Assembly: GCA_030679115.1 (NCBI GenBank)
Contig: JAUXTS010000009.1
Location: 1 to 53,455 of the forward strand
Direction: 5' to 3'
Length of the DNA stretch: 53,455 nucleotides
Origin: an archaeon
Lineage (GTDB): Archaea > Nanobdellota > Nanobdellia > Pacearchaeales > GW2011-AR1
The notes beneath the pieces were generated by a model. It did no database searches and was not told the origin of the DNA. It saw only the letters and a list, made by a program, of their open reading frames with translations. Numbering within the stretch: the stretch's first letter is position 1; every line of letters starts with the position of its first letter. The position numbers and the translations under genes are program-made. Below are positions 7,849 to 35,690 of the stretch, one piece after another.

Positions 7849-8032
7849 TTCCCTAAGAAACCAATGGTTTCTTGTGGGTTCAACTTCCTTAAAAATTGTT
7901 AAAATTATTTTTAATTATTGTATAACTAATTTCTCTCATAACCATTCACTTAGTAACTAACTAACTTACTAAGTTAATAAGAAAGATTTATATATTGCCT
8001 GAAATAATAAACAGCACAAGAAAGAGAGGAAA

Positions 8033-9993: not shown

Positions 9994-12900
9994 AAAAAAG
10001 TTTAATTTTCTTATTTGTATTTGTTTTCCTATTATCTTATGCAGCAGCTGCAACATTTACTCCTGCTCAAAGCACAAGTTTTGTAAATTATCAGAAAATG
10101 TCAAGTCTTGGATATTATGCTCCGGAAGGGAGATTATCAACATATTGGCCTCAAATGGATGAAGCAAATAAAGAAAGCTGCACTTCAAGACAGGATATTT
10201 TATTGCAGATAGCTCCAGGAGGATGTCAGCCGGCTGTTGTAAGAAGTGATTTGCTTGCCGAGCAAAATGTTCCGGTTTTCTGCCAAGTTATGGCTCTGCA
10301 GATTAATCCTTTGATAAATGTTCAAGAGATAAGCAATATAAGATTCACCGGAAACTATCCTAAAGAAATAGCTGGAACAGGATTCCATCCAGCAAAAGCT
10401 GCACTAAGAACAAATGATATTCTTCTCGGAAGCCCACTGACTAATAATATAGGTTATGTTGTAGTAATATTAAAGAAAAATGAAAAAGAAAGTTCCCTTC
10501 CTGATTTTGTAAATGTCACTCTCAGCGCACAAATAAGCTATGATGCAAAAAATGCATTTGGAATTGGAAGAAGTGATTTCATTCTTGAGCCAATGACTGA
10601 TGAACAATGGAATAAAGAAAAAGCAAAGCAATCGTTCTGGGGAGGAGCTTATTCAATACGAGCCGAAAGTGTAGAAAAAGATTATGCTGTTGTTTCAGTT
10701 TATTATCAAGACAGAAAAATATCAACTCAAAAAATAAAGAGAGGAGAAACTTCAAGTGATTTATATCTCCCAGGAATGTATTGCAGAGCCGCTCTGCAAT
10801 TGCAATTTGTAGATACAACTGTTGCACAAACACGGGCTAAATTAGAAATAAGAAGCGGAGACGGAACAGACACAGTAGATGTTTATTCAGGAAGCACATT
10901 CCTAAACGATAATTGCAGAGTAGAAAGTATAATTGCTTCTGCTGATGGTTCAACTGGAAATGTAACACTGAGATGCTCCCGAACAGGATTAAGTTCTGAA
11001 AGATTTACTCTATCCTTAAAGTCGGCAACTACTGGATTAATCACAGATAAAAATTTCGGAACTGATTTGGATATAAAGTTTAATGAAACAATAGAATCCT
11101 ATGAAAAAGTTATAGATTATCCGCAGGAAAGAGAAAACGATGCGAAGGAACTTCCAAGATATGGAGAAACTGCACTATCTGAAGCAATTGATTTCGCAAG
11201 AAGTTATGGAAAAACTTCAACCGAATCAAGATTAATAAAAAAATTCATGGAAACTTATCCAGATTCCCAACTAATAAATTCCAAAGGGTATCAAGCCAGA
11301 CTGGACGAAATTGGAAAAACAGACGATTCAAATGCAGTTTACAGCATTGAGATAAGCAACTCTTTCAAATCTATAAGACTTGCTGGGTTTGTTCAGCCTA
11401 AAGAACAGCCTGCAGCTTATCTATCAATTGATTCACAAATAGAAAAACTTGTTATTGGAACTAAAAAAACATTCTTTATAAAAGATAGTGCTGGAAGAGA
11501 TATTGAAAAATATATTATAATAAAAACTCTTGATACAAATAAAGTTGTTCTTGATACAAACTGTGAAGAAGCAGGAACTCTTTTTGGAGTTGAGCTTCTT
11601 CTTGACAACCCTGAAAGAGTATCCAAAACTCTTTGCGGACACGTTATTGGAATAAATAGAATAGAGACAACAGAATCTGCAAAAATAAGAGTTATTCCTT
11701 CATTCAAGGATACACGAACTGAAACTAATCTCACAGTCGCAATAGGAATTGAAAAAAGAGCCATTCAATTATCTCCTGTAAAAACACAGGAAAAAATCAC
11801 TGAACTGAATAAAACAATAATTAAATGGGAAGGTATATCTAACAATCTCGCAAAAGTTGTTACTGGAATGAAAGGGGCCTGCTTTGCTACAGCTGCAACT
11901 CTTACTTTCAAGAATTTCTTAGTTGGATTAAGTGGTGAAGCTCTTGCAAGACAAAAAGTTATGAATGGAGAAAGCGGTTGGAAAGAATTCTGTAAAAACG
12001 AACTTGCAAAAGAATCAAGCAAATATTCAAGCCTTGATGACTGCTTTAGTTCAAATTCAGATAAAATTGATAACGATGTTTCTCTTATGAGCACCCAGAT
12101 AAATAAATTAAACAATGATGTAAAAAGCATAGATTCCAGTTCAGTAGAAAAGGGCTCATTGGGAGAGAACAATGTAGATAGTGCTAAAGCCAGACAAGGT
12201 TATGTAGATTCAATCAAAAAAGAATTTCCAGATAATCCTATTGCACAAAAAGTAAATACTGGCATGACAACTGATGAATTGAGAAATACTTGGCTTCATC
12301 TAAGATTAAATAAAAACCAAGCCAGTTTAAGTGAAGAAGGAAAAACAAGAGTTAATAATGAACTTGGCAAAATCAACAAGCAGATTGAAGAAGAAATAGC
12401 TTTCCAGAAAAAATACACTTCCGCACAGCAACTTACCGGAAAAGGATATGCTACTCCTTTCTATGGAGCCGAATTTGCAAAGAGTGTAAGTTATGCAGAT
12501 GTCCGTCCTCTAACTGGAATCTCTTCTAGTGATGCTATATCAACTCAACTAAAAACCAATTCTGATATTACAGCAACTTCAACTATAATGACTGCTAACG
12601 GAGCTTATATTCTTGGATTGCAAGATGCACAAGGAACAGGAAATTATATTCCAAAAATGGCTATAAATGCCGACACAAATAAAGTCGTAACAGGAACAGA
12701 ACTTTCTCAGTTAATGTCACTCAATGGCATCGGAGCAATAAAAAAAGCAGATTCATCAACATATAACAATCCTATGAGAACTGCCGAAGTTAAATATTAT
12801 GAAACCGAGCCTTACAAAGGAATGCCTGCAATAGTTCCATTTGATACGCAAAGAGGCTGGTATGCTGCAACTAAACAAACTATTCCGGCTTTAGGAGGAA

Positions 12901-15470: not shown

Positions 15471-15556
15471 TATGCGGAGAACAGGTACTAGCAGAACTTC
15501 GTTCCGCGGTAACTCCAACATTTACATGTTGAAGTATTCGAAATTCGAATCCTTTA
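15471..15556 (-). repeat. tRNA-Leu trailer element: inverted T-arm copy, T-loop copy, hairpins H1 and H2, repeat of the tRNA 3' end
   Basis: In tRNA sense: TAAAGGATTCGAA-TTTCGAAT-ACTTCAACATGTAAATGTTGGAGT-TACCGCGGAACGAAGTTCTGCTAGTA-CCTGTTCTCCGCATA. The last 15 nt match the tRNA end CCTGTTCCCCGCATA with one mismatch. Confidence 0.8.
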
Positions 15557-15640
15557 TGCGGGGAACAGGATTCGAACCTGTGTAAGCACTAAGCTACTTG
15601 GTCCTAAGCCAAGCCCATTTGACCACTCTGGCATCCCCGC
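15557..15640 (-). tRNA. tRNA-Leu (anticodon TAG), class II with long variable arm
   Basis: GCGGGGATGCCAGAGTGGTCAAATGGGCTTGGCTTAGGACCAAGTAGCTTAGTGCTTACACAGGTTCGAATCCTGTTCCCCGCA. It has a CTTGG/CCAAG anticodon stem, loop CT-TAG-GA, and T arm ACAGG-TTCGAAT-CCTGT. Confidence 0.9.
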
Positions 15641-21771: not shown

Positions 21772-22331
21772 TGGAAAAAATATCAAACCTTGAACAGAAA
21801 GAACTTCTTCAAAAATCAGAAATAAGTATTTGGTTAGATAATTACAATGATATTTTTTCAGTTTTTGATTCGCGCCATTATCTTGAAAGAGCTCTTTCTG
21901 TAGACTTTTTAGATGAGATAAAAAGGGCAAGCCGAGATAAACCTTCTGGAGGATTATCATTGAATATGCTTATCCCAATTAAACAAAGAAATACGACTCA
22001 TGAAACTTTGATAAAAAAAAGGCTGAAAGAGCATTTCAAGAAACATACAGATATTCTTGAAAAAGATCAGGGTGAATTAGTTTGGCAAGGAATTTATTTT
22101 CTTTTTTTTGGCTTAATATTTATGTCTGTAGCTGCATATATATTGTTTTTCTATCATGATAAAATAAACTTTTTTAAGGAATTTCTTATTGTGCTTCTTG
22201 AGCCCGGAGGATGGTTTTTGTTTTGGGAAGGGCTGGCATTGATTATTTTTGAAACAAAGAAAATAAAACCAGATTTAGTATTTTACAGAAAAATGAGTAA
22301 AGCAGACCTTGTTTTTCATACTTATAAGTAA
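21771..22331 (+). CDS. Membrane protein, hypothetical
   Basis: 186 aa. 1-nt overlap (TAATG) with the preceding gene. Two TM segments in the C-terminal half. Confidence 0.5.
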   Translation: MEKISNLEQKELLQKSEISIWLDNYNDIFSVFDSRHYLERALSVDFLDEIKRASRDKPSGGLSLNMLIPIKQRNTTHETLIKKRLKEHFKKHTDILEKDQGELVWQGIYFLFFGLIFMSVAAYILFFYHDKINFFKEFLIVLLEPGGWFLFWEGLALIIFETKKIKPDLVFYRKMSKADLVFHTYK

Positions 22332-22344
22332 TATGTAAGATAAG

Positions 22345-22352
22345 TTTAAATA
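22345..22352 (+). promoter_or_regulatory. TATA box for tRNA-Arg(TCT)
   Basis: TTTAAATA centred about 28 nt upstream of tRNA position 1 (22377). Confidence 0.55.
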
Positions 22353-22376
22353 ACTTCTTTGTGATTTTTTGAGTAT

Positions 22377-22497
22377 GCTCCCGTAGCTCAGCCTGGATAG
22401 AGCACCTGCCTTCTATTGAAGGACTGAGTCTTCGATACATCGGAGACTTGTCTACGAAGTAAGCAGGGGGTCGCACGTTCAAATCGTGTCGGGAGCG
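22377..22497 (+). tRNA. tRNA-Arg (anticodon TCT) with 46-nt intron at 37/38 (22416-22461)
   Basis: GCTCCCG acceptor, GCTC/GAGC D stem, CCTGC...GCAGG anticodon stem, loop CT-TCT-A, T arm GCACG-TTCAAAT-CGTGT, CGGGAGC-G. Confidence 0.9.
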
Positions 22498-22626
22498 TTT
22501 AAAGGGATTTCATTCTTCAATCCCTTATTTCTCGATTTGAACTGCGAAGCACGTTCAAATACTTCAACATGTTAATGTTGAAGTCACCGCAGAGCTTTGC
22601 TCTGCAAGTGCTGTCGGGAGCGTTTA
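22498..22626 (+). repeat. tRNA-Arg trailer element: hairpin, inverted T-arm copy, direct T-arm copy, H1, H2, 15-nt repeat of the tRNA 3' end
   Basis: AAGGGATT...AATCCCTT (22502-22526). CGATTTGAACTGC (22533-22545) is an inverted copy of the T arm. GCACGTTCAAAT (22549-22560) is a direct copy. H1 is ACTTCAACATGTTAATGTTGAAGT (22561-22584). H2 is CACCGCAGAGCTTTGCTCTGCAAGTG (22585-22610). TGTCGGGAGCGTTTA (22612-22626) is identical to 22487-22501. Confidence 0.85.
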
Positions 22627-22640
22627 CACGATACTAAATC

Positions 22641-22648
22641 TTTAAAAG
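22641..22648 (+). promoter_or_regulatory. TATA box for tRNA-Cys
   Basis: TTTAAAAG, 24-31 nt upstream of tRNA position 1 (22672). Confidence 0.5.
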
Positions 22649-22671
22649 TGCTATATGTTTCTAAAATATAC

Positions 22672-22744
22672 GCGCAGGTGGGACAGTGGTTACTCCGGTC
22701 GGCTGCAGCCCGACTTTTCCCAGGTTCGAATCCTGGCCTGCGCT
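22672..22744 (+). tRNA. tRNA-Cys (anticodon GCA)
   Basis: GCGCAGG acceptor, GTCGG-CTGCAGC-CCGAC anticodon arm, T arm CCAGG-TTCGAAT-CCTGG, CCTGCGC-T. Confidence 0.9.
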
Positions 22745-22923
22745 TATTATAGTTTTGAAAGCCAGCGGAAAACTTTTTCTAAAAGTTTTTGCTGTTCGAA
22801 TCACTTCAATCTCTTTAGAGTTGAAGCTTCAAGATTCTATGAATCTTGACAGTGCTCAAGAATCAAAACTCAGGATTCTTGACATCACCGCGGAGCTTGC
22901 TCTGCGAGTGCTGGCCTGCGCTT
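22745..22923 (+). repeat. tRNA-Cys trailer element (expanded version with extra nested hairpins)
   Basis: AAAACTTTT-TCT-AAAAGTTTT (22769-22789). T-loop copy TTCGAAT (22795-22801). H1 variant ACTTCAATCTCTTTAGAGTTGAAG (22803-22826). TCAAGATTCTATGAATCTTGA (22829-22849). TCAAGAATC...GATTCTTGA (22856-22882). H2 is CACCGCGGAGCTTGCTCTGCGAGTG (22886-22910). CTGGCCTGCGCTT (22911-22923) is identical to 22733-22745. Confidence 0.85.
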
Positions 22924-23018
22924 TCATACTCTTTAACACATAAAACTCCCAGTTTAACGCCGACAATAAGTTTATAAGTATCTAAAATATAGAATTTTAT
23001 CACGGAGGTATTAAATTC

Positions 23019-23171
23019 ATGGCTACACAAGGATATTGCGTAAAATGCAAGAAAAAAGTAGATATAAAAGACCCAAAAGAGTCTCTCACCAAGAAAGGCA
23101 CGAAGATTGCTAAGGGAAAATGCCCTCATTGTGGAATAACTGTATGCAGAATGGGCGGAATCTGCAAGTAA
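23019..23171 (+). CDS. Small zinc-ribbon protein (DUF5679-like)
   Basis: Below the track cutoff. Translation: MATQGYCVKCKKKVDIKDPKESLTKKGTKIAKGKCPHCGITVCRMGGICK. GGAGG lies 9 nt upstream. Confidence 0.65.
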   Translation: MATQGYCVKCKKKVDIKDPKESLTKKGTKIAKGKCPHCGITVCRMGGICK

Positions 23172-23249
23172 ATAAACAAATTTTTATTAATTTTTTAATT
23201 TAATGCTTCTAAATGGAAAGTTTAAATATATTGATTGTAAATTAGATAG

Positions 23250-24767
23250 ATGAACAAGGGTAAAAAAGAAACAGCTAAAGAAGAGGAAAATAAGTATAAT
23301 CAAGTAATGGAATTAGCCTCCAGAAAAAGCCTGTTTTTCCCCTCAGCAGAAATATACCCTGATTCTCCAGCAGGTTTTTGGGATTTTGGCCCTTTTGGAC
23401 AGGCAATCAGAAGAAAAGTAATTGATTTCTGGAGGCATGAACTAGTGCAAAAAGAAAACATGTTAGAGATTCATGGTGCTCAAATCTTACCACAATTAGT
23501 GTTTGAAGGTTCTGGACATCTAAAATCCTTTGCAGATCCAATAATGCAATGTAAAAAATGTAAAAAATATGAAAGAGCTGACCAAATAATTGGAGAAAAA
23601 ATAGGGAAAAATGTTCCTGAATCATTAGCAATAGAAAAATTAGATGAAATGATTGCGGAACATAAAGTCAAATGTCCTAAATGTGGCGAAGAATTTGGAA
23701 AAGTTTCTAAATTTAATATGATGGTTGAAACAATTGTCGGTAAACCTGGAGAATTTAAAACTTTTCTAAGACCTGAAGCTTGTCAGTCTATATTTTTAGA
23801 TTTTGCAAGAATGACAAAAACAATGAGATTAAAATTGCCTCAAGGAATTGCACAGGCAGGAGGAGCATTCAGAAATGAAATTTCTCCAAGACAAAGCATC
23901 ACAAGAGCTGTTGAATTTGCACAAATGGAAGCAGAAATATTTTTTGATCCGATAAGAATAAATGAAATAAAAGACTTTGATAAAGTTGCAAATTACAAAG
24001 TTAACGTACTTAGATTAGGAAAAGAAAAAGTTGAAAAATTCAAAGCCTCCGAATTAATAAGTAAGAAAATCGTGCCTAAACAATTAATTGCTTATTTCAT
24101 GGCTCGCACTCAGCAAGTATGGAATAAAATGGGCATTCCTCTGGAAAAAATCAGATTTAGAGAAGTTGATAAAGATGAACGAGCGTTTTATTCTCTCGCA
24201 ACATTTGATTTTGAAGTTGAAACCAGTTTAGGATGGCTTGAATTAATAGCAAATAACTACCGAACAGATTATGATTTGAAAGGGCACGGAGAAAAATCAG
24301 GAACAGATTTAACTTATCTCACTCAAGAAGGTAAAAGAATAATTCCTCATATCTGGGAAATTTCCGCAGGTATTGATAGAACAGTTTATGCAATTCTCGA
24401 GCATTCATTGAAAAAAGGCAAAGAAGGATTATATCTTTCTTTGAATCCTAAATTAGCTCCTGCTGATTGTGCCATTTTCCCATTAGTAAATAAAGAAAAT
24501 ATGCCTTGTATAGCATTAGAAGTCAAAGAACTGCTCCAGAATGCCTGGTTTGATGTCTTATATGATGATTCTGGAAGTATAGGGAGAAGATATGCGAGAG
24601 TTGATGAAGTGGGTGTCCCCTATTGCATAACAATAGATGGCGATTCAACCAAAAAGAAAGATGTCACATTGAGAGAAAGAGATTCAGGCAAGCAGATAAG
24701 AGTCAAGATTTCCGAACTCTCAGACAAGTTAAGAAAACTTCTAAACAGCGAAATCAAATTCAAATAA
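23250..24767 (+). CDS. glyS: Glycyl-tRNA synthetase (archaeal/eukaryotic alpha2 type)
   Basis: FFPSAEIYPDSPAGFWDFGPFG, class II motifs (FRNEISPRQSITRAVEFAQMEAEIF), GIDRTVYAILEH, and a C-terminal anticodon-binding domain. Confidence 0.93.
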   Translation: MNKGKKETAKEEENKYNQVMELASRKSLFFPSAEIYPDSPAGFWDFGPFGQAIRRKVIDFWRHELVQKENMLEIHGAQILPQLVFEGSGHLKSFADPIMQCKKCKKYERADQIIGEKIGKNVPESLAIEKLDEMIAEHKVKCPKCGEEFGKVSKFNMMVETIVGKPGEFKTFLRPEACQSIFLDFARMTKTMRLKLPQGIAQAGGAFRNEISPRQSITRAVEFAQMEAEIFFDPIRINEIKDFDKVANYKVNVLRLGKEKVEKFKASELISKKIVPKQLIAYFMARTQQVWNKMGIPLEKIRFREVDKDERAFYSLATFDFEVETSLGWLELIANNYRTDYDLKGHGEKSGTDLTYLTQEGKRIIPHIWEISAGIDRTVYAILEHSLKKGKEGLYLSLNPKLAPADCAIFPLVNKENMPCIALEVKELLQNAWFDVLYDDSGSIGRRYARVDEVGVPYCITIDGDSTKKKDVTLRERDSGKQIRVKISELSDKLRKLLNSEIKFK

Positions 24768-24783
24768 TTCACACCTAAATAGA

Positions 24784-24791
24784 TTTATAAT
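24784..24791 (+). promoter_or_regulatory. TATA box for tRNA-Ala
   Basis: TTTATAAT, 24-31 nt upstream of tRNA position 1 (24815). Confidence 0.55.
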
Positions 24792-24814
24792 ATATCTTTT
24801 TATTGAATTTTCAA

Positions 24815-24885
24815 GGGCCCGTATTATAATGGTATTATTCGCCCATGGCATGGGTGAGACCCGAGTTCGATTCTCGGCGGGTCCA
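24815..24885 (+). tRNA. tRNA-Ala (anticodon GGC)
   Basis: GGGCCCG/CGGGTCC acceptor with the G3:U70 identity pair, CGCCC-ATGGCAT-GGGTG anticodon arm, T arm CCGAG-TTCGATT-CTCGG. The D stem is AT-rich and has one mismatch. Confidence 0.82.
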
Positions 24886-24969
24886 TCGAACGAGGAGAGT
24901 TCGATTCACTTCAACATGTGAGTGTTGAAGTTGTCCACGGAACTTGTTCTGTGGCATCGGCGGGTCCAT
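24886..24969 (+). repeat. tRNA-Ala trailer element (minimal version)
   Basis: ATCGAAC (24885-24891) is an inverted copy of the T-loop. GAGTTCGATT (24897-24906) is a direct copy. H1 is CACTTCAACATGTGAGTGTTGAAGT (24907-24931). H2 is TGTCCACGGAACTTGTTCTGTGGCA (24932-24956). TCGGCGGGTCCAT (24957-24969) is identical to 24874-24886. Confidence 0.85.
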
Positions 24970-25064
24970 ATCATATCGACAAAAAATACAAAAATGGAAA
25001 ACACTATCAACTGATAGTTACTTTTCTGCAGAATATTTAAATAGCCATAATTCTCGTAAAAAAT

Positions 25065-25706
25065 ATGAATAGACGATTAAGAACTAGAGGAAATGTAAGC
25101 ATAGATTTGTTTAATGATACACGAGATAATACTTCAGGATATAAGGAAAGCATGATTCGTTTTGAATTGGTCAAAAGATTGCCCTTTGCCTCTTTTTCTC
25201 ATGGAGAATTTATGAGAAAATCAGCAGAATTAATTAAACTTGTTCAAAAATATCAAAGATTGGAACCTAAAGTCGAAATATTAGGGTTTAATAGCCCTCA
25301 AGATTGTCTTGCTTTACATGGACTTGACGGCGGACAAGATGATGCAACCGCACATAAAATTTTAGATGGAAGAAATTCATATTCTTTTGAAGAGTTTACA
25401 CAAAAAGATTATGAAAGAAATATAGAACCAGAATTAATATTGAAATCTGAAGAAAAAGATTCATTTATGATTTGTTTAACTGCAACTCCAGGTATAGAAA
25501 CTAACTTTGCAGGTATTAATGCTCCAAGTTATTATAGTTTTTTTAAGTCAAAGAATTTGAAAAGAAGATTACAATTTTATGGACAAACATTGGCTCCTGA
25601 ATTATTTGAAGCAATTGTAGAAAGATATCATAAGCCAGGGTTAACTCATTCATTAAGTCATAAATATAAAGATAGCATATTGAATTATTTACAATGTGCA
25701 ATTTAG
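25065..25706 (+). CDS. Hypothetical protein
   Basis: 213-aa ORF. A TATA-like ATATTTAAATA lies about 27 nt upstream of the ATG. No family recognised. Confidence 0.55.
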   Translation: MNRRLRTRGNVSIDLFNDTRDNTSGYKESMIRFELVKRLPFASFSHGEFMRKSAELIKLVQKYQRLEPKVEILGFNSPQDCLALHGLDGGQDDATAHKILDGRNSYSFEEFTQKDYERNIEPELILKSEEKDSFMICLTATPGIETNFAGINAPSYYSFFKSKNLKRRLQFYGQTLAPELFEAIVERYHKPGLTHSLSHKYKDSILNYLQCAI

Positions 25707-25708
25707 TT

Positions 25709-26062
25709 CTAAACAATGCTTCTTAAATTATCTCTGTCTTTTCTTGGAATTATATGAATATGTGCGTGCTTAACTAATTGTCCAGCAGGTTCTAAATTAT
25801 TCATTATTACATTAAATCCATCGCCCTGTTTTTTCTCGAGTAATTCAGATGAAATTTTTTTCATAAAAGATAATAGTTCATTTCCTAATTTATCTGGAAT
25901 ATCGAGTAAAGTCACATAGTGATTTTTTGGAATTATCAAAGTATGCCCTTTAGCTTTAGGATTTATATCCAAAAAAGCAATAAAACTATTGCTTTCTCCA
26001 ACTATTTCTGATTTTATTTCTTTTCTTGCTATTTTGCAGAATATGCATTCCTTGTTTTCCAT
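25709..26062 (-). CDS. HIT family (histidine triad) hydrolase
   Basis: CIFCKI..., FLDINPKAKGHTLIIPKNH, and the histidine triad HAHIHIIPR. Confidence 0.9.
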   Translation of the reverse strand: MENKECIFCKIARKEIKSEIVGESNSFIAFLDINPKAKGHTLIIPKNHYVTLLDIPDKLGNELLSFMKKISSELLEKKQGDGFNVIMNNLEPAGQLVKHAHIHIIPRKDRDNLRSIV

Positions 26063-27924: not shown

Positions 27925-28437
27925 TTATGGCCTTGTCCAAGAAACTTCATAATAACTTACATCTCCCTCTTCATCAACAATTCCCAAAAGAAGATTTTTC
28001 TTGGTTGAATGAGCAATTCTATTTTTTGCAGAAAAATCATGCCAGCTTAATTGCTCGTTCTCTTTTGCCGTATAAAGAATCCAATGTGCATGCTCTTCTC
28101 CCGGCTTAACTCCTTTATCATAAACCCTGAATTCCGCCCCATATTTAAGCGCAGTTTTTACAATATATCCTTTTTTCCTTAAATCTGAAAAAACTATGCA
28201 CTTCGTCTCTATCTTTTTATCACCCCTTCTTGCTTTTCTCATTAAATCTTCAAAAGAAACTACCTTCTTACCAGATTTCAAAATCATTCTTTTTTCTGCA
28301 ATTAAAAATAATGCTTCAGCAGAGGAATATTCTATATGGCTTTCTTTTTTCTCTCCAAATTTAGATTTCTCATACCATGAAAATGCATCTGAAGAAGAAG
28401 ATATTATTCTGTCCCCTGTAAGATTTGCGTCTATCAT
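27925..28437 (-). CDS. endA: tRNA-splicing endonuclease EndA
   Basis: 170 aa. FSDLRKKGYIVKTALKYGAEFRVYDKGVKPGEEHAHWILY...STKKNLLLGIV carries the catalytic Tyr/His/Lys pattern. The size fits a homotetramer-type subunit. Confidence 0.88.
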   Translation of the reverse strand: MIDANLTGDRIISSSSDAFSWYEKSKFGEKKESHIEYSSAEALFLIAEKRMILKSGKKVVSFEDLMRKARRGDKKIETKCIVFSDLRKKGYIVKTALKYGAEFRVYDKGVKPGEEHAHWILYTAKENEQLSWHDFSAKNRIAHSTKKNLLLGIVDEEGDVSYYEVSWTRP

Positions 28438-28463: not shown

Positions 28464-28530
28464 GAAGCAAAGCTTCTTTTAAAGATTCCGTAGGAATCTT
28501 TAACCCATTCAACTCTTTTAGAGTTGAAGT
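28464..28530 (-). repeat. Orphan hairpin-module cluster upstream of endA
   Basis: Read on the minus strand: ACTTCAACTCTAAAAGAGTTGAAT (H1 variant), TTAAAGATTCCTACGGAATCTTTAA, GAAGCTTTGCTTC. The module order matches the tRNA trailers. Confidence 0.6.
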
Positions 28531-35522: not shown

Positions 35523-35690
35523 ACATTCAATCTCGTAAAATTTAAAGGATTAAAGCTTCGTGTAAGCAAATCTTAAAAACTTCAATCTCGTAAGACCTCA
35601 AGGATGTAAATCCTTGATGGCCGTCAAGAACTGAAAGTTCTTGAGAGTTGAAGGAGTAAAGATTGCAGCGCAATCTTTAAAATCCCTCCA
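35523..35690 (+). repeat. Orphan cluster of hairpin modules (possible structured RNA)
   Basis: Direct repeat ATTCAATCTCGTAA / CTTCAATCTCGTAA (35525, 35580). An H1-variant outer stem CTTCAATCTC...GAGAGTTGAAG (35580-35653) encloses TCAAGGATGTAAATCCTTGA and TCAAGAACTGAAAGTTCTTGA. It is followed by TAAAGATTGCAGCGCAATCTTTA (35657-35679). Confidence 0.6.

Follow-up and report, generated by a model that had tools for sequence, protein, structure and literature searches.

A two-hairpin module with a predicted fold behind tRNA genes of DPANN archaea

A hairpin (H2) downstream of four tRNA genes of a groundwater DPANN archaeon is maintained by paired substitutions and forms half of a ~50-nt two-hairpin module (H1-H2), undescribed in the sources searched. 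The module sits inside a duplicated, truncated copy of the 3' end of the upstream tRNA, occurs behind at least 31 anticodons in DPANN contigs, and is best read as the structured end of miniature tRNA-associated insertion units (probability, roughly 0.55). Here, we report the structure, context, and distribution of this family, starting from a 53,455-nt stretch of DNA (the window; GenBank assembly GCA_030679115.1, contig JAUXTS010000009.1).

An earlier note, made from the sequence alone, had described the four H2 copies and proposed that compensatory changes reflect selection on a folded single strand, either RNA or DNA, rather than on the primary sequence. The coordinates were exact (Table 1), and the listed paired changes were all present (G:C to A:T at inner position 6, G:C to A:T at the first pair in Ala, and CAC/GTG to TAC/GTA in Leu). 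Each H2 was predicted to fold as drawn, with z-scores of −2.5 to −3.4 against dinucleotide shuffles, and H1 and H2 together gave z-scores of −4.2 to −6.1. Selection on a folded strand is strongly supported by the analyses below; the note, however, treated the sequences as tRNA trailers and missed that they are not ordinary trailers.

Table 1. Coordinates of the four tRNA genes and their downstream units within the window.
Position	Strand	Feature	Sequence	Remark
22377..22497	+	tRNA-Arg(TCT), intact gene in front of unit 1		46-nt canonical intron (Rfam, aragorn)
22534..22542	+	Inverted T-loop of the Arg unit	GATTTGAAC	Reverse complement of the tRNA's own G53-T-loop
22549..22560	+	Copy of the T-stem 5' strand plus T-loop of tRNA-Arg	GCACGTTCAAAT	
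22561..22584	+	H1 of the Arg unit	ACTTCAAC..GTTGAAGT	10 bp, tetraloop
22585..22610	+	H2 of the Arg unit	CACCGCAGAGCTTTGCTCTGCAAGTG	
22611..22622	+	Second copy of T-stem 3' strand, acceptor 3' strand, and discriminator of tRNA-Arg	CTGTCGGGAGCG	
22672..22744	+	tRNA-Cys(GCA), intact gene in front of unit 2		
22794..22826	+	T-loop copy plus H1 of the Cys unit	GTTCGAATC (T-loop copy)	
22827..22884	+	Extra pair of hairpins nested between H1 and H2		58 nt; the same nested form occurs in L196 and L237 (metagenome loci)
22886..22910	+	H2 of the Cys unit		
22911..22922	+	Second copy of the tRNA-Cys 3' end	CTGGCCTGCGCT	
24815..24885	+	tRNA-Ala(GGC), intact gene in front of unit 3		
24886..24907	+	Linker of the Ala unit	TCGAAC, then GAGGAGA, then the T-loop copy GTTCGATTC	With A73, TCGAAC reads as the reverse complement of GTTCGAT
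24908..24956	+	H1 (24908-24931) and H2 (24932-24956) of the Ala unit		Identical H2 allele behind tRNA-Glu in L141 (metagenome locus)
24957..24968	+	Second copy of the tRNA-Ala 3' end	TCGGCGGGTCCA	
15557..15640	-	tRNA-Leu(TAG), intact gene in front of unit 4		
15536..15552	-	Overlapping inverted and direct T-loop copies	GGATTCGAATTTCGAAT	
15486..15535	-	H1 (15512-15535) and H2 (15486-15511) of the Leu unit		Best model score in the window (71 bits)
15473..15484	-	Second copy of the tRNA-Leu 3' end	CTGTTCTCCGCA	One mismatch

Because four copies alone are weak evidence, more were collected. A scan of a genome collection with a 16-base H1 pattern, which was too short, returned only chance hits, whereas a metagenome scan with a T-loop plus H1 pattern (GTTCRAWT[N]ACTTCAAY..GTTGRAG) returned 118 loci, of which about 11 were chance hits in coding sequence and the rest came from groundwater and sediment contigs. 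A covariance model built from 17 gap-free seeds found 99 modules, 93 of them distinct, including some that the pattern had missed. On the model alignment, all 11 H2 pairs had substitutions on both sides and 92.9% of cells were standard pairs; the covariation score was 0.474, against 0.185±0.007 for shuffled partners (0 of 500 shuffles reached the observed score) and at most 0.09 when partners were slid by 1 to 3 columns. RNAalifold predicted the same H2, with 14 of 16 pairs showing compensatory change, although on the same alignment, which had already been fitted to the model's structure. To allow for relatedness among copies, 21 non-overlapping pairs of close sequences (8 or fewer differences) were compared; these contained 18 double changes, all of which kept the pair, against 2.2 expected by chance, as well as 11 single changes that kept pairing through G.U and 9 that broke it.

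Two refinements follow. The internal loop that the earlier note drew as 1 nt by 2 nt is, in most copies, an extra C:G pair plus one bulged base on the 3' strand (A in 64 of 83 copies). The upper part of H1 also covaries, while its lower stem (ACTTCAA/TTGAAGT) is conserved in sequence. The folding strand is the tRNA-sense strand: G.T/T.G pairs outnumbered A.C/C.A pairs by 82 to 17, and 59 of 93 H1 loops were GNRA (GTAA, 39; GTGA, 12; GCAA, 7; GAAA, 1) on that strand only. The folded molecule therefore has tRNA polarity and is either RNA read through from the tRNA gene or the DNA strand of the same polarity.

Within the window, the four tRNAs that carry H1-H2 are exactly the four whose last 12 nt recur downstream, and the other four (Val, Thr, Met, and Arg-GCG) have no such repeat. 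Across the family, the order is an intact tRNA; a short, often T-rich linker; in about half of the units, the reverse complement of the tRNA's own G53-T-loop, sometimes running into the T-stem 3' strand; a few nucleotides; a copy of 1 to 5 nt of the T-stem 5' strand plus the T-loop; H1 and H2; and a copy of the T-stem 3' strand, acceptor 3' strand, and discriminator (positions 61 or 62 to 73), plus 0 to 3 nt. The inverted T-loop was found after 32 of 67 module-bearing tRNAs and 16 of 75 others, against 6 of 142 in an upstream control. The insertion point is exact, as removing H1-H2 restored a contiguous T-arm and 3' end with no mismatch in 51 of 80 units; in 29 units, an extra C61 precedes H1 and the duplicate starts at position 62, and in 22 there is no extra C and the duplicate starts at position 61, while the remaining units differ only by point mismatches. 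The module thus has no target duplication of its own, and even an unusual T-loop (TGCAATT, in one locus) is copied faithfully.

A cognate tRNA lay upstream in 85 of 121 matches, covering the 31 anticodons, at a usual distance of 13 to 28 nt (range, 10 to 1,045 nt). Tandem arrays of 2 to 3 units occurred, for example with a period of 94. H2 alleles that are identical or differ by 3 or fewer nt lay behind different tRNAs in different contigs (Ala and Glu; Leu and Lys; and Leu, His, Tyr, and Lys), with flanks matching the local tRNA. In three loci, the space between tRNA and module held small genes, namely, a DUF433 plus DUF5615/PIN-like pair, a VapB-like protein with a partner, and a DUF2283 protein with a partner. 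Among 148 distinct tRNA genes in the loci, 71 had a 3'-end copy preceded by H1, 14 had one preceded by another insert, and only 2 had an uninterrupted T-loop-to-3'-end copy. No partial copy spanned an intron position in an intron-bearing cognate tRNA. Flanking open reading frames were unrelated between loci (239 clusters among 269), so no conserved neighboring gene was found.

Presence of the units differed between relatives. A Logan contig (L121), 86 to 88% identical over the flanking genes, has tRNA-Ala followed by a different ~110-nt structured insert without H1-H2, and its tRNA-Cys is followed only by a T-loop copy and ACTTCAAC. A 77%-GlyRS relative (L122) has a plain tRNA-Cys trailer. In run X4, one of several related groundwater runs, one contig skips exactly the 58 nt nested in the Cys unit (joint 22826->22885).

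A gathering-threshold Rfam scan of the window found only its 8 tRNAs, and a permissive E-value scan of 22480-22960 found nothing credible. C/D-box, H/ACA, K-turn, and hammerhead readings of H1 and H2 were rejected on inspection, as the required boxes or bulges are absent. The Pfam content of the window is housekeeping; it encodes EndA, an RNase Z-like metallo-beta-lactamase, and RadA with an intein, and no integrase, transposase, reverse transcriptase, or Cas1 appeared among the 25 families displayed of 44 matched. In IMG/VR viral contigs, the T-loop plus H1 pattern gave one chance hit in a coding region and the commonest H1 allele gave none. Three metatranscriptomes held only depth-2 contigs, one with a homologous tRNA plus unit, and showed no joints or ends over the units. 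T-runs after the first and second tRNA 3' ends did not differ. Full-text literature searches found no description of this family.

We read H1-H2 as the downstream end of insertion units lodged at the 3' end of tRNA genes. In this reading, the core moves between tRNA loci, the flanks are copied from or matched to the tRNA at which it lands, insertion always leaves the tRNA gene whole, and repeated insertion stacks units in tandem, sometimes enclosing cargo; the stems would be kept because the unit must fold as a single strand of tRNA-sense polarity while it spreads, either as a read-through transcript or as a displaced DNA strand. Patchy and polymorphic presence, tandem stacking, cargo, decayed or foreign partial copies, and one core shared by many tRNA types fit a selfish or neutral insertion family better than a conserved host RNA. 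Mobility itself is nonetheless inferred: no candidate enzyme was found (within the Pfam limits above), no gene is linked to the units, no terminal inverted repeats were seen by inspection, uninterrupted partial copies that could serve as targets are rare, no clean empty-versus-filled pair with identical flanks was recovered, and compensatory change is equally compatible with a host function. The hardest fact for every standard mechanism is that the flanks on both sides are specific to the tRNA while the core is shared, which points, by inference only, to a process that copies the target. A speculative version, possible but not favored, is a tRNA-directed unit whose insertion is templated by its target, with the core joined to the T-loop of a tRNA sequence (perhaps at the RNA level or on a displaced strand) and a 5'-truncated copy of the chimera laid down behind the cognate gene by target-primed synthesis with template switching. 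This would yield the tRNA-matched flanks, the variable 5' extent of the partial copy, the 0- to 3-nt overlap after the discriminator, the inverted T-loop at the 5' junction, and polar tandem arrays, and would amount to a SINE-like or integron-like system anchored on tRNA genes.

The most serious rival, though considerably less likely, is a host-serving RNA element of the tRNA 3' trailer, read through from the tRNA promoter and acting in 3'-end processing, termination, stability, or quality control, with similarity between loci kept by gene conversion. The folding strand, the GNRA loops (typical of RNA), the cognate flanks, the EndA and RNase Z-like genes, and the metatranscriptome contig are in its favor, as are H1-like or H2-like hairpins in a tRNA-Thr trailer and in two mRNA leaders. 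It is opposed by presence at only 4 of 8 tRNAs in the window, absence at orthologous tRNAs in L121 and L122, copy number variation in arrays, decayed or foreign copies (four loci), cargo genes inside units, and the lack of a family-wide T-run difference marking a terminator after the unit; the RNA evidence is one contig at depth 2.

Somewhat less likely still are ordinary attR scars of integrase-driven elements, whose attP would mimic the tRNA T-arm-to-3'-end with H1-H2 as arm-type or accessory sites, and most of whose bodies would since have been deleted. An intact tRNA plus a direct partial 3' copy is the classic signature (PMC9897764, PMC3293823), cargo of 0.6 to 1 kb lies between the repeats, partial copies reaching into the variable arm or D-arm differ from the resident tRNA in three loci, and serial integration would explain the arrays. 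However, no integrase was found in or near any unit (among the neighboring open reading frames and the Pfam families displayed), the distance from tRNA to module never exceeds about 1 kb, the copy is split by H1-H2, the pattern and commonest allele were not found on viral contigs apart from the chance hit, and the same H1-H2 allele behind 4 to 6 different tRNAs with perfectly matched flanks would need very rapid attP switching.

It is doubtful that H1-H2 alone is a REP- or PATE-like single-strand transposon, mobilized in trans by an HUH/Y1 enzyme, that inserts just 3' of the T-loop motif GTTCRAWT(C) and survives only in dispensable tRNA fragments. Duplication-free, exact insertion at 60/61 or 61/62, strand-specific folding, the bulged base in H2, the conserved lower stem of H1, and H1-H2-like modules in a canonical tRNA-Leu intron and in intergenic leaders are consistent with it, but potential targets are very rare (2 of 148 tRNAs), H1 and H2 are unlike each other, H2 is too variable for one transposase to recognize, and no TnpA- or RAYT-like gene was seen among the Pfam families displayed for the window. 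A relic T-loop intron at 60/61, with the intact upstream 3' end a later replacement, is close to refuted despite its position in a region where noncanonical introns may occur (PMC4090602), the H1-H2-like pair in a canonical intron, the EndA gene, and one tRNA-His locus with the module in an otherwise complete gene with a promoter, since that locus alone (1 of about 120) gave a tRNA after virtual splicing and aragorn, its T-stem would not re-form cleanly, an intact tRNA-His lies 280 nt away, and no bulge-helix-bulge (BHB) was visible by inspection of the minimum-free-energy folds, in which both junctions abut closed helices with 0 to 1 free nt.

tRNA genes are the classic landing sites of mobile DNA, but the sites known so far are plain direct repeats, and the mobile elements and RNA processing of DPANN archaea are poorly known. 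If mobile, the units reveal a targeting principle based on the universal T-loop and a way to insert at a tRNA gene without harming it; if host RNAs, they are a new class of tRNA-linked structured RNA. Either way, they will confound tRNA annotation through partial hits, they break short-read assemblies (Logan contigs end at the units), and they are a ready marker for strain-level polymorphism in groundwater archaea.

None of the known systems fits fully. H1-H2 is not a classical MITE; it has neither terminal inverted repeats nor a flanking duplication of its own. Noncanonical archaeal tRNA introns, and intron gain through mobile elements (PMC4090602, PMC3293823), share an insertion inside the T-loop region and a proposed link between integrating elements, tRNA fragments, and inserted sequences, but here no BHB motif was visible in the predicted folds and the interrupted copy is not the functional gene. 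REP/REPIN and IS200/IS605-derived palindromic elements (PMC3733652) are likewise short, abundant extragenic hairpins, probably with a conserved foot, bulges, single-strand folding, and no target duplication; the present family has two unlike hairpins in tandem and an obligatory tRNA-fragment context, with no RAYT or TnpA identified among the Pfam families displayed for the window. Integron attC sites (PMC9668308, PMC5737091) are probably likewise conserved in structure rather than sequence, with unpaired or bulged bases, strand-specific folding, and cassette-sized (0.5 to 1 kb) toxin-antitoxin cargo in arrays, but by inspection only no R''/L''..L'/R' boxes, GTTRRRY core, or intI/attI were seen (GTTCRAWT and its inverse do not fit GTTRRRY/RYYYAAC), and the arrays are anchored on tRNA genes with each unit repeating the tRNA 3' end. 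Casposon integration at the tRNA-Pro 3' end of Aciduliprofundum boonei (PMC5137440) also targets a tRNA 3' end with the T-loop region as the recognized leader, with a 15-bp duplication (against 12 to 16 nt here, similar in size but in a different register) and polar, array-like insertion as in CRISPR; here, no terminal inverted repeats were seen by inspection and no Cas1 or PolB among the Pfam families displayed, the duplicated segment starts directly after the T-loop rather than overlapping the tRNA by 5 bp, and an extra T-loop copy and an inverted T-loop are present. The attL/attR partial tRNA duplications left by integrating archaeal and bacterial elements (Williams 2002, as cited in PMC9897764; PMC9897764; PMC3293823) share the intact tRNA gene followed by a direct partial copy of its 3' part, tandem stacking at one tRNA, foreign-looking partial copies, and small cargo, whereas in the present family the partial copy is split exactly at 60/61 by a conserved two-hairpin module, the units are mostly under 100 nt with no integrase found (within the Pfam limits above), and the same core serves more than 30 tRNA species.

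Outside the two-hairpin H1-H2 module, related or similar structures were noted at other places in the window and in the metagenome loci (numbered with the prefix L; see the table). A solitary H2-like hairpin was found 2 nt after tRNA-Thr(TGT), with a CCC/GGG outer helix, 1 nt against 2 nt unpaired, and an 8-bp inner stem, but with no H1 and no repeat of the tRNA end. In the linker between the tRNA and the inverted T-loop, an additional conserved hairpin (AAGGGATT..AATCCCTT) was present in the window and in L133, L141, and L221, and it is shared by units behind different tRNAs.

Two structures of this type lie in front of ORFs. A structured leader of ~165 nt precedes a small zinc-ribbon ORF that, judging from its sequence alone, resembles ribosomal protein S27e. 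In this leader an H1-type stem (ACTTCAATCTC...GAGTTGAAG) closes a three-way junction and is followed by a hairpin whose 3' arm reads like a promoter TATA element (AATCTTTAAAA). A weak H1-H2-like pair (19.7 bits) lies 40 nt upstream of the ATG of a 170-aa ORF; its second hairpin again contains the AATCTTTAAAA promoter-like motif, which is also seen upstream of tRNA-Cys.

In L132, a nearly complete tRNA-His with its own TATA-like box carries H1-H2 in its T-loop, with an intact tRNA-His about 280 nt away on the other strand; this is the only case found of the module in a whole gene. In L166, the canonical 94-nt anticodon-loop intron of tRNA-Leu(TAA) contains an H1-like hairpin (CTTCAATCTTATGAAAGTTGAAG) followed by a second hairpin, the two being nested in an outer helix. 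In L174, a module lies in inverted orientation relative to a convergent tRNA-Ser, with no repeat of the tRNA end and with GATTTGAAC on the far side.

Among the ORFs of the window, one matched Rad51/RadA and single ORFs matched Intein_splicing and LAGLIDADG_3, which may be one RadA with an intein. Two PIN-domain proteins, an EndA homologue, and a metallo-beta-lactamase (RNase Z-like) were also present. In the Logan runs X1 to X4, short-read unitigs end or branch at the H1/H2 units and chimeric joints occur, such as 22582->22826; the repeats break assemblies and could cause misjoins in metagenome-assembled genomes (MAGs).

Locations of additional structured features and associated ORFs in the window and in metagenome loci
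Sequence	Position	Strand	Feature
Window	7851-7878	+	Solitary H2-like hairpin after tRNA-Thr(TGT)
Window	22502-22526	+	Additional conserved hairpin in the linker
Window	22300-25100		Region of unitig ends and branches in runs X1-X4
Window	24970-25712		Region compared with L121:2094-2240
Window	25065-25706		213-aa ORF
Window	27925-28437		170-aa ORF
Window	28478-28530	-	Weak H1-H2-like pair
Window	35525-35690	+	Structured leader of the zinc-ribbon ORF
L121	2093-2205		M2 insert
L121	2094-2240		Region compared with window 24970-25712
L132	~800-900 (oriented copy) and 501-571 (complementary strand)		tRNA-His with H1-H2, and intact tRNA-His
L174	~11283-11440		Inverted module and convergent tRNA-Ser

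A second repeated structured insert of ~100 nt, here called M2, was found in L121 (an 86-88%-identical relative) and also in L156, L208, L212, L218, and L241, just after a tRNA 3' end or its copy. M2 runs TTTGTTCACCGCAGCGAG...GAGCAAGAGTGAATCAAA with a closing stem, and no Rfam match was found. It directly follows the tRNA 3' end and in L241 is itself followed by another copy of that 3' end, while the L121 copy contains an H2-like hairpin (CACCGCGGAACATAGGTTCTGCGTGTG). The 213-aa ORF of the window, which has no Pfam match, and its surroundings are absent from L121, which has the M2 insert there instead.

Further unrelated inserts of ~50-60 nt sit between a partial T-loop copy, or nothing, and a copy of the tRNA 3' end. 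These were seen in L161, L171, L133, L135, and L175 (e.g., TGACGACACTAAGAAT..ATTCTTTCAG plus the tRNA 3'-end copy) and in L151/L152/L207 behind tRNA-Gly(TCC) and tRNA-Arg(CCT). The design of a split or repeated tRNA 3' end is therefore not unique to H1-H2.
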